64,000 bases of DNA. Origin: a virus. The DNA is taken from IMG/VR virus record IMGVR_UViG_3300042910_000038. One strand, 5' to 3'. Of the stretch, positions 24,864 to 38,737 are shown piece after piece (position 1 is the first letter of the stretch; each line of letters begins with the position of its first letter). The notes beneath the pieces are model-generated. The model was given only the letters and a program-made list of their open reading frames with translations, was not told the origin of the DNA and searched no databases. The translations under genes and the position numbers were made by a program.

Positions 24864-27299
24864 GTGAGCGACTTCCTGCTCTTTCACGGCATGATAGCAT
24901 ATGATGAGCAGTTTGCTGGAGCCAAACAGAACGTTGAAGAGATGTCTCCATACGTCGACTATGTAATATTAGTCGTGGAAAAACAAAGACCATTTACAGA
25001 AGAACAGAAAAAAGAACTTTTAAAATATCCAAACGTGATACTGCTTGAATTGCCTTTTGAAGACAACATCCCAAGCTTTCGTAATAAATATTTAGATAAA
25101 GCTAAAGAAATAATGAAACAGCAAAACAAGCCCGGATGGATGGCAGTCCTAGATACAGACGAGCACTTCTGCAAGGAGCTAAGAGAGAACCTCAGAAAAA
25201 TAATTGCTGAATATGATGCGAAGAATTACACGCAGCTTGGCGTTAGATGCCTTGAAGGTTTCGAAGTTCACGACTGGATGGATGACATTGACAAGCTTAA
25301 AGAGTCCGCTACAAATCTGAGGCAGTCAAGCTATTTCAAAAGTTTGATATTCCGCATCTGTTGCGACCAGTTGCATTACGCTGGAATCGGAAATCCGCCA
25401 AACGCCGTCCACGAGTGGTGGGGGTGTCCTGTCCATCCGTGGAAGCCGATTTATCTGCCGCCTCATCTGACATACTCTCATATAAAAAGCAGTTTAACTA
25501 TATGGCGTAACTCGGCTAGAAACGTATATTTAAACGGAGGGGGCAACAACCTCGGCGACAAGGTGCCCGAATGGGTTGAGCTTCGCAGCATCTGCAATGC
25601 TTTAGGCATATCTTGTTGGCGTGAGTATGAAGCCTATTTAAAGAGGGGCAACGTTGACCCGTTGCTTAAAAAGTTTCTGATTAAGTGTTTGGATATGCCT
25701 AGAACGGATTTTGGCGTCGAGTATAGGCAAATGTGCGTGAGTGGAGATACCTTGGTAGTTACACCTAACGGAGTAAAACCCATTAAGGATTGTAAGGGGG
25801 AAAAGTATGTTTTAGGTTTTGACTTTCATCGAGGAAAAGTTGTATGGGCTTTGATTTTAGATTATTTCTGTACCACGTCTGATGATATTTATACAGTTGA
25901 AACTGCAAATCATCGCTTACGAATAACAGGCGATAACGAAGTTTGGACTGAGAAAGGCTGGGTTCCAACCGAAAAACTTAAGAAGCATAGACTACTAACA
26001 CTAAATTTAGTGACGTTAGACGATGCCACTCAGGTGGACTCCGGAAGAAATACGTATTCTAAAGGAAAATTACCAGCACATGACCATAAAAGAACTGCAA
26101 CAGAAGTTCTTTCCAAATCGAAGCCTTGGCTCTGTTCGTGGGAAGATAGAGAAGTTACACTTAACCAAGGGCAAAATCAAAAGATGGACAACGGAAGAAG
26201 TGGAAATATTAACGAAAGCTTATCGAGCGAAAGTTCCCTTGTCACAGATACCATTAGAGAGGAGTTATCAGGCTATAGCAGTAAAGGCACAAAGGTTGGG
26301 ATTGGCAAGAAAACAGAGTTTTTACATGAAGAACATAGAGAAGATGAAAGATACAGAATGGGCATACCTAGCGGGGTTGATAGATGGGGAGGGAACAATC
26401 ACAATAACAATTTCTCAAAAAGGTTCCAAAATCGAGATGAGACCACGAGTTGTGATTTCAAATTCGTGTCCAAGGCTTGTAGCGTGGTTGAAAGAGAGGT
26501 TGAGTTATGTGCCACGACGCGCAGCTCAGGGTCGAGACGTTCGGAGACGTTATACAATCCCAAATTACATAATCAATGTTACTGGGTTGAGGGAAGTGAA
26601 AGAAATCTTGGAGAAAACGTTGCCTTATTTGATAGTGAAGAAAGAGCAGGCAGAAATAGTATTGGAATATATCCGGGGAAGGAAGAAAGGGATGCCATAC
26701 GTGGAGAGGGACTTCGAACTTTTGTTGAAGGTAAGAAGATTAAACTTGCGTGGGAGCAAGTTAGAAAGATTCGAAAGGAGATTTGCAGAGTTAAAGAGGT
26801 TGTATATGACTTTACGACGTCAACGGGGAACTTTTTCGCGAATGGCATTCTGATTCATAACTGTTTATGGTATTTTGCCATGCATCCGGATGAGCTTACG
26901 CCTGAAATATTGTTTAAGATTAAGAATCCGCCTAAAATGACGCCTGAACAAGAAGTGGAATGGTATGTGATTTCCCAGTATCGTTATGTGCTTGGAAGAG
27001 AACCTGATGATGCTGGTAGGCGGCATTATGTTCAGGCTATTTTGGAGGGTAGGATTAGGCGTGAGGATTTGCCTAAAATACTGATGATGAGCGAGGAGTA
27101 TAGGCAGAAGTTTAACATTGATGAGACTGTTCAATGGGTTATAAACTGTTACCGTCAAGTGTTGAAGCGAGACCCGGATGAGGAGGGCTTACGGGTCTAC
27201 GTTGACCACATTGTTAAGGGAAGAATAAACAAGGAAGACTTGCCTAGGATATTAATGGAAAGCGACGAATACCGCTCAAGGTTTGGGGGAAGGAGTTGA
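24864..27299 (+). CDS. GT2-like glycosyltransferase containing an intein, with two C-terminal DUF4214-like repeats
   Basis: N-terminal GT-A-like region with RN...VLDTDE; intein; YRxVLxRxPDxxG repeats twice; about 435 aa after splicing. Confidence 0.7.
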   Translation: MSDFLLFHGMIAYDEQFAGAKQNVEEMSPYVDYVILVVEKQRPFTEEQKKELLKYPNVILLELPFEDNIPSFRNKYLDKAKEIMKQQNKPGWMAVLDTDEHFCKELRENLRKIIAEYDAKNYTQLGVRCLEGFEVHDWMDDIDKLKESATNLRQSSYFKSLIFRICCDQLHYAGIGNPPNAVHEWWGCPVHPWKPIYLPPHLTYSHIKSSLTIWRNSARNVYLNGGGNNLGDKVPEWVELRSICNALGISCWREYEAYLKRGNVDPLLKKFLIKCLDMPRTDFGVEYRQMCVSGDTLVVTPNGVKPIKDCKGEKYVLGFDFHRGKVVWALILDYFCTTSDDIYTVETANHRLRITGDNEVWTEKGWVPTEKLKKHRLLTLNLVTLDDATQVDSGRNTYSKGKLPAHDHKRTATEVLSKSKPWLCSWEDREVTLNQGQNQKMDNGRSGNINESLSSESSLVTDTIREELSGYSSKGTKVGIGKKTEFLHEEHREDERYRMGIPSGVDRWGGNNHNNNFSKRFQNRDETTSCDFKFVSKACSVVEREVELCATTRSSGSRRSETLYNPKLHNQCYWVEGSERNLGENVALFDSEERAGRNSIGIYPGKEERDAIRGEGLRTFVEGKKIKLAWEQVRKIRKEICRVKEVVYDFTTSTGNFFANGILIHNCLWYFAMHPDELTPEILFKIKNPPKMTPEQEVEWYVISQYRYVLGREPDDAGRRHYVQAILEGRIRREDLPKILMMSEEYRQKFNIDETVQWVINCYRQVLKRDPDEEGLRVYVDHIVKGRINKEDLPRILMESDEYRSRFGGRS
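25734..26861 (+). mobile_element. Intein (376 aa)
   Basis: Block A CVSGDTLVVTPNG, block B-like LRITGDNEVWT, blocks F/G VYDFTTSTGNFFANGILIHN followed by +1 Cys. Confidence 0.9.
26023..26853 (+). CDS. LAGLIDADG homing endonuclease with N-terminal Myb-like repeats, encoded in the +1 frame inside the intein
   Basis: WAYLAGLIDGEG; WTPEEIRILKENY and WTTEEVEILTKAY; 26023 is +1 relative to frame 24864. Confidence 0.88.
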   Translation: MPLRWTPEEIRILKENYQHMTIKELQQKFFPNRSLGSVRGKIEKLHLTKGKIKRWTTEEVEILTKAYRAKVPLSQIPLERSYQAIAVKAQRLGLARKQSFYMKNIEKMKDTEWAYLAGLIDGEGTITITISQKGSKIEMRPRVVISNSCPRLVAWLKERLSYVPRRAAQGRDVRRRYTIPNYIINVTGLREVKEILEKTLPYLIVKKEQAEIVLEYIRGRKKGMPYVERDFELLLKVRRLNLRGSKLERFERRFAELKRLYMTLRRQRGTFSRMAF

Positions 27300-37385: not shown

Positions 37386-37433
37386 CACCTGCCTTTCGGC
37401 TTTCACTAACCATTTCCTTCTCACCAAATTGTC

Positions 37434-38734
37434 GCAAGGAAGCCTACGAGCTTTAGCCGTGGGAGGAATTGTGACCATGACATTTTTATGTAGATTCGCT
37501 TATCTCCTTTTCGGGGACGCCTACGAGGAAATGTTTGCCTCTTAACCTTCTTGAGCCGACTAAGGCTAAGAGAAGGATGCTTAAGCAAACTTATGAAAGC
37601 TTCTTCAATATTATGCAAGAAGCTCTCGGCTTCGTCGGCGACGTTAAGTCGAGGGCTGAGCTTCATAACAAGACATATGAGAAGTTCAGAGGCAAATACG
37701 GTGTGGCGTCCCAGCTTATCATAGAGGCTACAAGCTACGCTTGGAGCATAAGGAGAACTGTGGAAGAAGACATCAACAAATGTGTCGTGAGGTTTGACAA
37801 GAGGCTTTTCAGCTTCAGGCAGACTAAGAGGGGAAATCCAATCCTCAGCCTTAGACTTAACCATGAAAGAGTAGGGCTTCCAATAAGTCAAGATGGTGCC
37901 TATAGGAGGCTTCAAAACCACCTCGAAGATGGTTGGAAGATAACAAGCATCATCATGAAACGAAACCTCAGGTTCCTCGTCGTCCTCTCTAAAGACTTTC
38001 CAGAACCCCCTTACAGACCAAACTGGATGGGTGTGGACGTTAACAGTTCCAAAATCGCCATATCCATCGTTAGTAAAGGGAAAGTGCTGAAGCAAACCTA
38101 TTTCGGACAAGATGTCTCCATAAAACAGTTCATGTTTGAAGAGAGGAGAGCAAAACTTCAGAGTTATCGAGACAAGGGCTCCAGCAAAGCTGGTCTCAAG
38201 CTTAGGAAACTTAGTGGAAAACAGAGAAACTACGTTAGAACAAGAATGTGGCAGATAGCTAACGAAATCGTTAAGCTGGCTAAACAATTCAACGCTAACA
38301 TAGCTATCGAAAAACTCAGAAACCTTAGAAAGCATAGAGGTGAGTGGAGCAAGAATAGCCGGAAGAAAGTTAACCGCATACCCTACGCACTTTTTAGGCA
38401 CGCCTTGAAATGTGTAGCTGAAAGAGAGGGAATATTTATGAAAGAGGTTGCCCCCAGTTACACAAGCCAAACCTGCCCACGGTGTGGGCATATCAGTAAG
38501 GAGAACTGGAGAGGTTATGTCTACTTCAAATGCGTCAGATGCTGTTATGAAGCGGATAGAGACCGAGTTGCAAGTCTCAACATCGCCCTCAGGGCGGCTC
38601 CAAAAGTAGGCGTCCCCAAACGCTATTTCTGGAGCCAGTTTCCTGAGGGAGATGCCTCCGTCAGCAGGCACATTTTGAAGGATGAAGGGTGTGGAAGATG
38701 GCATCAAACCACCCTAAGCTTCAAACCCGCTGAC
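37434..38734 (+). mobile_element. IS200/IS605-family (tnpB-only) element
   Basis: Subterminal hairpin AAGCCTACGAGCTTTAGCCGTGGGAG (37440-37465); removing 37434-38734 restores an open frame for the interrupted gene; no tnpA. Confidence 0.7.
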
Positions 38735-38737
38735 TAA
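37535..38737 (+). CDS. tnpB: TnpB RNA-guided endonuclease
   Basis: RuvC GVDVN, IAIEKL, ADRDRVASLNI; zinc finger CPRCG..CVRC. Confidence 0.92.
   Translation: MPLNLLEPTKAKRRMLKQTYESFFNIMQEALGFVGDVKSRAELHNKTYEKFRGKYGVASQLIIEATSYAWSIRRTVEEDINKCVVRFDKRLFSFRQTKRGNPILSLRLNHERVGLPISQDGAYRRLQNHLEDGWKITSIIMKRNLRFLVVLSKDFPEPPYRPNWMGVDVNSSKIAISIVSKGKVLKQTYFGQDVSIKQFMFEERRAKLQSYRDKGSSKAGLKLRKLSGKQRNYVRTRMWQIANEIVKLAKQFNANIAIEKLRNLRKHRGEWSKNSRKKVNRIPYALFRHALKCVAEREGIFMKEVAPSYTSQTCPRCGHISKENWRGYVYFKCVRCCYEADRDRVASLNIALRAAPKVGVPKRYFWSQFPEGDASVSRHILKDEGCGRWHQTTLSFKPAD

Follow-up and report, generated by a model that had tools for sequence, protein, structure and literature searches.

The window, by which we mean the whole analysed stretch of 64,000 nucleotides (nt) from the virus record IMGVR_UViG_3300042910_000038 (IMG/VR), contains at positions 24864-27299 a glycosyltransferase-like gene interrupted by an intein, and the DNA of this intein carries a second, overlapping open reading frame (ORF) for a LAGLIDADG homing endonuclease, shifted by +1 relative to the host gene. 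All of these features lie on the + strand. The host ORF, delimited from the ORF list and from profile matches, encodes 811 amino acids (aa) that comprise a GT-A (GT2-like) domain and C-terminal DUF4214 repeats, and it begins with a GTG codon with GGTGA ahead of it. An earlier note on this DNA had described the host as glycosyltransferase-like, an assignment that agrees with the matches of a profile of its intein-less homologs to GmaR (2.3e-9) and SunS (1.7e-5) and with an Atlas annotation of the host protein as Glycos_transf_2 at 0.97. The N-extein (24864-25733) ends with ...TDFGVEYRQM inside a conserved motif in which T281, G284, E286, and R288 are invariant in an alignment with 8 intein-less homologs (alignment A1). 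The C-extein (26862-27299) starts with CLWYFAMHPDE... and holds two DUF4214 repeats according to Pfam and the same alignment, the DUF4214 match of the host protein standing at 1.7e-15.

The intein and the overlapping endonuclease gene

Between the exteins lies an intein of 376 aa in the host frame (25734-26861), which runs from its first Cys at 25734 to a terminal HN and is followed directly by Cys+1 at 26862; its limits are drawn from Pfam, NCBIfam, and the intein-less alleles described below. It is a contiguous, class-1-type intein within the 811-aa GT-A-like/DUF4214 protein, and a split intein was rejected, since one ORF of 811 aa spans the whole host without a host-frame stop. The N-terminal splicing (HINT) domain (residues 1-92, 25734-26009) contains Cys1 and block B, and the C-terminal splicing domain (residues 336-376, 26739-26861) contains block F (VYD...) and block G (ILIHN), both delimited from a structure model and from an alignment of related inteins (A3). 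In that model, the two regions are beta-rich, with a pLDDT (predicted local distance difference test score) of 81-94 overall and of 87-92 in the C-terminal domain. The residues between them (93-335, 26010-26738) form a host-frame linker that is the shadow frame of the endonuclease, as judged from the model, from comparison with an orthologous intein, and from composition. Here, pLDDT is ~27 and secondary structure is absent; 69% of the residues are G, S, R, E, K, N, D, Q, T, or P, and 26% are hydrophobic, compared with 41% in the endonuclease. Searches of frame 0 with Pfam and NCBIfam recovered no endonuclease domain, and a functional in-frame centre was rejected. The earlier description of intact splicing ends around a shadow-frame peptide without endonuclease motifs is thus sustained on both counts, with Cys1, HN, and Cys+1 present, splicing profiles matching frame 0, and a centre that combines its low pLDDT with an absence of conservation between orthologous inteins.

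The host precursor probably splices, because the catalytic positions are all present except for the block-B His and because the downstream exteins remain under purifying selection. Across the seven related inteins of A3, Cys1 (25734-25736), Thr65 of block B, Y358 and D359 of block F, the terminal H375 and N376, and Cys+1 are invariant. The profile for the intein C-terminal region (TIGR01443) scores 18.4, above its cut-off of 15.6, and the orthologous intein in P0060 reaches 61.7 bits with the Intein_splicing profile. One could instead suppose that the insert is not spliced at all and that the glycosyltransferase tolerates it as a loop on its surface, an idea put forward for the ShiLan insertion with its hidden HNH gene (PMC11855218). 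Such a loop would fit the replacement of the His in the block-B T-x-x-H motif by Asn68 (25935-25937), seen in the window and in two orthologs introduced below (L005 and L008) and not in L010, L015, L089, and L091, which keep the His in A3; it would also fit the window's own match to Intein_splicing (PF14890, E 2e-8), which at 34.6 bits falls marginally under the cut-off of 35.8. Set against this are the invariant splicing residues just listed, the folding of the HINT ends at pLDDT ~90, and the position of the insertion in an invariant host motif, where a loop of 376 residues would probably be harmful, and we consider an unspliced insert highly improbable. The block-B His normally matters for the first splicing step, and inteins without it, such as Tko CDC21-1, are known to splice. 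The inteins of the window, L005, and L008 may compensate for Asn68 in that step, or they may splice slowly.

In the +1 frame, an ORF of 276 aa runs from an ATG at 26023 to a TGA at 26851-26853, 8 nt short of the intein end and inside block G; the coordinates, the YLAGLIDGEG motif, and the overlap with block G that had been reported for it all hold. The approach to the start (26010-26022) includes a GTGA (26010-26013), a +1-frame TAG (26017-26019), and an ACG (26020-26022). Residues 1-91 (26023-26295) are assigned, from the model and weak Pfam matches to GcrA and Myb in the N-terminal part, to two three-helix Myb/GcrA-like helix-turn-helix (HTH) repeats with W-T-x-E-E motifs. A tblastn match (E 9e-7) also links residues 4-98 to GcrA-like regulators of Streptococcus phages, and the repeats presumably add DNA binding. 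Residues 110-245 (26350-26757) make up a single-motif LAGLIDADG core, in which YLAGLIDGEG occupies 26365-26394 and G118, D121, E123, and G124 are invariant in an alignment with relatives (A2). The LAGLIDADG_1 match is marginal at 22.1 bits against a Pfam cut-off of 23.1, as is the match to LAGLIDADG_3, and when both frames are searched with Pfam and NCBIfam, LAGLIDADG matches are confined to the +1 product. An AlphaFold model built on the relatives' alignment, with a pLDDT of 82.8, shows a pair of three-helix repeats at the N-terminus and a core with a predicted alpha-beta-beta-alpha-beta-beta-alpha fold, for which the best Foldseek matches are I-MsoI, I-CvuI, and I-CreI (probability 1.0, target TM 0.65-0.74). 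A homodimer prediction for residues 100-245 gave 0.66 against 0.60 for a control, and we do not use it as evidence either way.

The endonuclease has 46 database relatives, the best four of which (P0001-P0004, ~255 aa, with identities of 30-35% and E-values as low as 5e-26) align with it in A2 from residue 1 to ~238. On the three of these four contigs that were read (P0001, P0002, and P0004), all virus-like, the relatives are separate genes with intergenic spacers, and the ORFs flanking the two loci for which DNA was at hand (L001 and L002) held no intein halves. The closest full-length relatives are thus stand-alone genes, which supports the proposal, made in the earlier note, that the endonuclease had a free-standing origin. 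A C-terminal tail of ~38 aa (26737-26853), which overlaps the C-terminal splicing domain, is absent from the free-standing relatives in A2, and its existence is probably owed solely to the position of the next +1 stop in block G.

Selection and codon choice in the shared DNA

Two orthologs bear on which frame is under selection. L005 (JGI sample 3300035099) has a host protein 89% identical in aa and a layout identical to that of the window, and L008 (NCBI QMUL01000161.1) combines a +1 ORF of 281 codons with an intein at the window's site in a host that has diverged much further. Between the window and L008, the +1 products share 39% identity (E 1e-50), whereas the host-frame centres translated from the same DNA have no similarity (E 1.1), and constraint reverses at both ends, where it is the splicing blocks that are conserved, in contrast to the endonuclease tails. 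In the comparison of the window with L005, the overlap contains 11 differences, 10 of them non-synonymous in the host frame; in the +1 frame the same 11 amount to 5 amino-acid changes and 4 silent ones, and 6 fall at +1 third positions compared with 1 at a host-frame third position. Taken together, the similarity to L008 and the substitution classes in the overlap indicate that the +1 ORF is under purifying selection.

The host ortholog in L008 contains two inteins, at 292-1458 and 1717-2856. The first belongs to the canonical kind, with a LAGLIDADG_3 domain in frame and 26-30 stops in its other frames, and the second, at the site shared with the window, is of the out-of-frame type, so that canonical and out-of-frame architectures coexist in one gene.

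As had been noticed from the letters alone, both frames are free of stops over 831 nt: the host frame holds 0 across this interval, and the third forward frame holds 34. When the endonuclease was re-coded with the codon usage of the window, the intein frame acquired a mean of 18 stops, and when its own synonymous codons were permuted, the mean was 12.6, with 0 never reached in 20,000 trials of either kind; free-standing relatives have 22 stops in the corresponding frame. The host frame reads the endonuclease's -1 frame, and a stop is possible there only where a T-ending endonuclease codon precedes a codon beginning with AA, AG, or GA, each such stop being in principle removable by a synonymous change from NNT to NNC. 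In the window's endonuclease, 0 of the 86 codons at these risky positions end in T, compared with 50 of 189 elsewhere in the ORF; the proportion at risky positions is 22/86 in two free-standing relatives and 25% in the window's other genes. L008 has 0/96, and the pattern extends to six embedded genes (0/473 at risky positions, 251/1008 elsewhere) as against seven free-standing relatives (149/565 at risky positions). With no T-ending codon at any of the 86 positions, synonymous choice therefore holds the host frame open.

Were the other frame used, a TGA would be unavoidable at every Met that precedes a codon beginning with A, and each gene has 1-4 such pairs. The fixed +1 frame would thus follow from the genetic code, through the removal of stops by synonymous T-to-C changes, a line of reasoning confined to these loci. 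In addition, the first codon positions of the endonuclease, which are rich in purines, are read as second positions in the host frame, and this could yield a harmless polar linker.

The absence of stops also bears on whether the layout is an artefact of sequencing or assembly, in which two compensating indels would have shifted the domain of an ordinary in-frame LAGLIDADG intein. Indels are possible in metagenome assemblies, but a frame produced in this way would hold ~12-22 stops where the actual frame has none, together with no T-ending codon at its 86 risky positions. The endonuclease also aligns from its own Met1 with free-standing genes, and a +1-frame stop lies just upstream of its ATG. 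The same layout is found in L005, in L008, and in over 20 further loci, for which samples and assemblers differed, and since it recurs in independent assemblies there are no paired indels of the kind that the earlier note had named as contradicting its reading. We regard the chance of an artefact as practically negligible.

Mobility, expression, and recurrence

The exteins of the window and L005 are 86.8% identical in nucleotides, with 77 of 585 positions different, and the intein between them is 98.3% identical, with 19 of 1128 positions different (Fisher p 2e-21). Third codon positions account for 56 of the 77 extein differences, a sign of purifying selection on the exteins of intein-bearing alleles, and for 2 of the 19 in the intein. 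An intein so much more similar than its exteins is a classic mark of recent lateral transfer, and the element has recently passed from one diverged host allele to another.

Homologs that lack the intein are common (for example, P0048, at 71% identity) and have Thr, Ala, or Val at the +1 position. The locus occurs in public metagenomes from hot springs and sediments. Depth in run X4 is 63.5 for the intein, compared with 190-600 for the exteins; one contig of this run has an exact deletion of 1128 nt that joins 25733 to 26862, and others are empty with Ser at +1. The exteins reach a depth of ~1000 in run X6, where the intein is at most 2.3, and run X7 has empty alleles only. Intein-less alleles at the predicted junction, which the earlier note had named as something to look for, are therefore found both in this X4 contig and in the 8 homologs that align across the junction in A1. 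The element is apparently still spreading. Intein-free alleles outnumber the intein-bearing allele in several hot-spring metagenomes (X4, X6, and X7), and some empty alleles, in which Ser replaces Cys at +1 and the first 20 nt of the C-extein have diverged, could be cleavage-resistant. When the surroundings of the empty site were searched for a palindromic target, only 6 of 11 positions were symmetric, which tells us little.

This evidence of transfer is pertinent to a reading in which the +1 ORF is a decaying relic, homing has ended, and what remains is a de facto mini-intein with a long linker. Against this reading, the ORF is intact, its catalytic-motif residues are invariant, and the 39% identity with L008 persists while the host-frame centre has diverged beyond recognition. 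Some observations do lean toward decay, namely, that there is no recognisable strong translation signal, that the +1 ORF of one related locus (L090) is truncated, and that the closest pair of loci offers 11 differences only, but the excess identity of the intein over the exteins, which indicates recent lateral transfer, and the coexistence of filled and empty alleles count against it, and we judge a relic unlikely.

How the endonuclease is translated is best approached through the position of its start codon. All seven of the first-found elements have a +1-frame stop 0-2 codons ahead of the ATG, and the N-termini align with those of free-standing relatives, so there is little room for a frameshift fusion. 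Programmed +1 ribosomal frameshifting, which would generate an N-extein/N-intein/endonuclease fusion and was one of two routes suggested in the earlier note, has in its favour that both frames lie on one mRNA and that a strong ribosome-binding site is absent. The stop before each ATG, however, almost excludes a shift site, each ORF has its own ATG from which it aligns with free-standing N-termini, and a conserved slippery motif was not seen across the loci, which leaves frameshifting very unlikely. Double frameshifting to an in-frame fusion was rejected. These comparisons favour separate initiation over frameshifting, and the endonuclease may be translated by independent, probably weak, internal initiation at the ATG at 26023. 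A GTGA 9 nt upstream of this ATG constitutes a weak partial Shine-Dalgarno sequence, compared with the GGAGGTGA-type sites (GGTGA) that lie 3-4 nt upstream of the starts of window genes, and no convincing ribosome-binding site or promoter was found before it. AT-rich stretches occur at inconsistent distances across loci and are not claimed here as promoter evidence. Low expression would be usual for an enzyme of this kind.

We examined the 80 nearest endonuclease loci in GTDB genomes and the 80 nearest in JGI metagenomes. The same +1 layout was found at 20 or more further loci, in ~8 host-gene families, and the window's splicing domain, used as a query, finds related inteins in other proteins, with a +1 LAGLIDADG ORF in 3 of the 3 checked (L089, L090, and L091). 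Of these three, L089 lies in a GT1-type gene on a 104-kb contig and L091 in a ResIII helicase whose insertion lies in the P-loop. Two of the GTDB relatives are embedded in inteins, L010 (Ca. Terraquivivens tikiterensis) and L015 (a Bathyarchaeia metagenome-assembled genome), both with glycosyltransferase hosts. Among the JGI relatives there are 17 embedded loci (15 distinct), with G+C contents from 0.24 to 0.65 and with hosts, assigned by eye from translations with no family search on these loci, that include glycosyltransferases, DUF2201-like proteins, a MoxR-like ATPase, a RadA/KaiC-like ATPase, a DegT-type aminotransferase, and a P-loop ATPase. Over the whole set, the ~8 host-gene families comprise GT-A and GT4 glycosyltransferases, DUF2201-like proteins, a MoxR-like AAA ATPase, a RadA/KaiC-like ATPase, a DegT-type aminotransferase, a helicase, and a P-loop ATPase. 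The endonuclease is in the +1 frame relative to the host in every embedded case found. Its start lies 83-104 codons into the intein in the seven elements found first, 5 of which have its stop 8 nt short of the intein end. In the endonuclease tree, the embedded genes are confined to one half.

Two of these loci merit separate mention. In L090, which has a GT4-type host gene, a near-copy of the L010 element (L090:1979-2524) has a premature +1 stop that truncates the endonuclease to 182 codons, and the host frame is open, so endonuclease decay occurs in the family. In L115 (L115:1-2184), a single ORF for a RadA/KaiC-like ATPase contains two inteins of this type, both with long polar centres, one in the P-loop (between G... 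and SGKTQ) and one downstream; the check for a +1 ORF covers the first only.

Considering all of this evidence, we think it highly probable that the window carries a composite selfish element, consisting of a contiguous intein in the host frame and an overlapping +1 homing endonuclease gene; the earlier note's reading of an out-of-frame invasion is supported. Translation of the host frame would produce two HINT halves joined by a polar, disordered linker of 243 residues, and protein splicing would remove this linker along with the intein and restore the glycosyltransferase. The endonuclease, probably a homodimer, is predicted to cut intein-free alleles at the junction between YRQM and a following S, T, or C, and repair after cleavage would copy the whole element. 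An enzyme that acts as a homodimer is ill suited to serve as an in-frame intein domain, and separate translation may be favoured for this reason. If the recurrence described above is taken at face value, then the window's element would belong to a large, hitherto overlooked family of intein/endonuclease composites that inhabits environmental archaea and bacteria and their viruses, in which an I-CreI-type, probably homodimeric enzyme is always overprinted in the +1 frame, which has spread to at least 8 host-gene families, and whose frame is fixed by the genetic code; we hold this broader proposition to be an even call.

Several points weigh against these interpretations and should be set out together. 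Asn68 in block B, the sub-threshold Intein_splicing score, and the lack of a convincing ribosome-binding site have been described above. The substitution counts of the close pair are small, at 11 sites, and an invasion would have required the purging of ~20 host-frame stops before the host gene worked again. The endonuclease tree, with 57 rows, leaves 31 of its 54 forks unresolved and does not decide between one and several origins. Finally, an endonuclease VII-like enzyme in an actinophage intein is reported to lie in 'frame 3' (bioRxiv 10.1101/2025.01.02.630785), so the +1 rule is not universal.

The remainder of the window includes genes for a RadA/Rad51-type recombinase, ParB, and several glycosyltransferases and methyltransferases, and many of its proteins have no Pfam match. 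A DNA search of a phage collection with the host gene gave 0 matches, and scans of viral contigs with the host protein and with the endonuclease recovered no close relative. Two ORFs on opposite strands, of 428 aa (37421-38707, - strand) and 400 aa (37535-38737, + strand), overlap almost totally, and the former has no match in Pfam. Between 33400 and 58700, many gene starts on the - strand have a T-run and then GGGTG at or just before the GTG or ATG, and the + strand arm of the window, unlike the - strand with its T-runs and GGGTG, has GGAGGTGA-type sites 3-10 nt upstream of its starts.

Relation to known systems

The earlier note had cautioned that out-of-frame endonucleases may have precedent, and this caution was well placed, as the architecture has been published for the dnaX intein and related cases for phages. 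What is already known from dnaX is the overlapping-frame layout; what is new here is the endonuclease lineage, the host gene, the archaeal/viral hot-spring setting, the codon signature, and the commonness of the arrangement. The element adds evidence from an independent lineage for a model in which the splicing element comes first and the endonuclease invades later. An architecture that recent preprints have called rare recurs in 17 of the 80 nearest metagenome relatives, and if the family exists as proposed, then 'out-of-frame' inteins would be a stable evolved design, common and missed by gene callers, and not rare accidents or intermediates. Because gene callers miss the endonuclease, such inteins are mislabelled as decaying or as mini-inteins. 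The absence of T-ending codons before AA, AG, or GA offers a quantitative signature of dual coding that could be applied to other inteins with 'degenerate' centres. The filled and empty alleles that coexist in hot springs provide a natural system for studying the homing cycle, and both the disordered linker inside the intein and thermophile-derived I-CreI-like enzymes with HTH modules may interest protein engineers.

The closest parallel is the intein of cyanobacterial dnaX, the gene for the tau/gamma subunits of DNA polymerase III, for which Phillips, DeSimone & Gogarten (bioRxiv 10.64898/2026.09.14.751524) describe an out-of-frame LAGLIDADG endonuclease in a '+2 ORF', a disordered in-frame centre, omega values that depend on the frame, and alleles of empty, mini, and full type side by side. 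The first proposal of this kind is credited in that preprint to Gorbalenya 1998 (NAR 26:1741), and two preprints that cite the 1998 paper differ, in their statements on this point, as to whether the dnaX endonuclease is antisense or on the same strand. The two systems share a contiguous intein with a disordered in-frame centre, an overlapping same-strand LAGLIDADG gene, frame-specific purifying selection, and the coexistence of empty and filled alleles, and a secondary invasion of a mini-intein has been proposed for both. The present case differs from dnaX in its glycosyltransferase host, carried by a virus-like archaeal hot-spring element, in its enzyme, whose I-CreI-like core has a single motif and is preceded by two N-terminal HTH repeats, and in the spread of the layout over many host genes. 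The dnaX '+2 ORF' may not be in the same relative frame, and no cyanobacterial relatives of the endonuclease were found among the 160 nearest loci.

A survey of actinophages describes 'non-canonical' inteins with antisense LAGLIDADG and antisense VSR-like endonucleases, in addition to the 'frame 3' enzyme mentioned above, and argues that such elements are under-detected (bioRxiv 10.1101/2025.01.02.630785). These resemble the present element in having an endonuclease outside the intein frame, an unstructured centre, continued transfer, and a proposed free-standing origin; their hosts, unlike ours, are bacterial phage genes for terminase, polymerase, capsid, and thymidylate synthase. In fractured genes, a free-standing endonuclease gene sits between the halves of a split intein (Dassa et al. 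2009, PMC2677866), so that the host is cut into two ORFs and must be trans-spliced, whereas here the host frame is free of stops and the intein is part of one polypeptide. The ShiLan insertion (2025, PMC11855218) is comparable in that a stop-free host-frame insertion hides an out-of-frame endonuclease with a homing-like distribution, but it has no splicing domains and its enzyme is of the HNH type, while the window's element has all intein blocks and a LAGLIDADG enzyme. At the level of the protein itself, residues 110-245 share with I-CreI, I-MsoI, and I-CvuI a predicted fold and a single motif with an acidic catalytic residue, and they differ from these group I intron-encoded enzymes, which lack HTH repeats, with a sequence identity of 17-24%.

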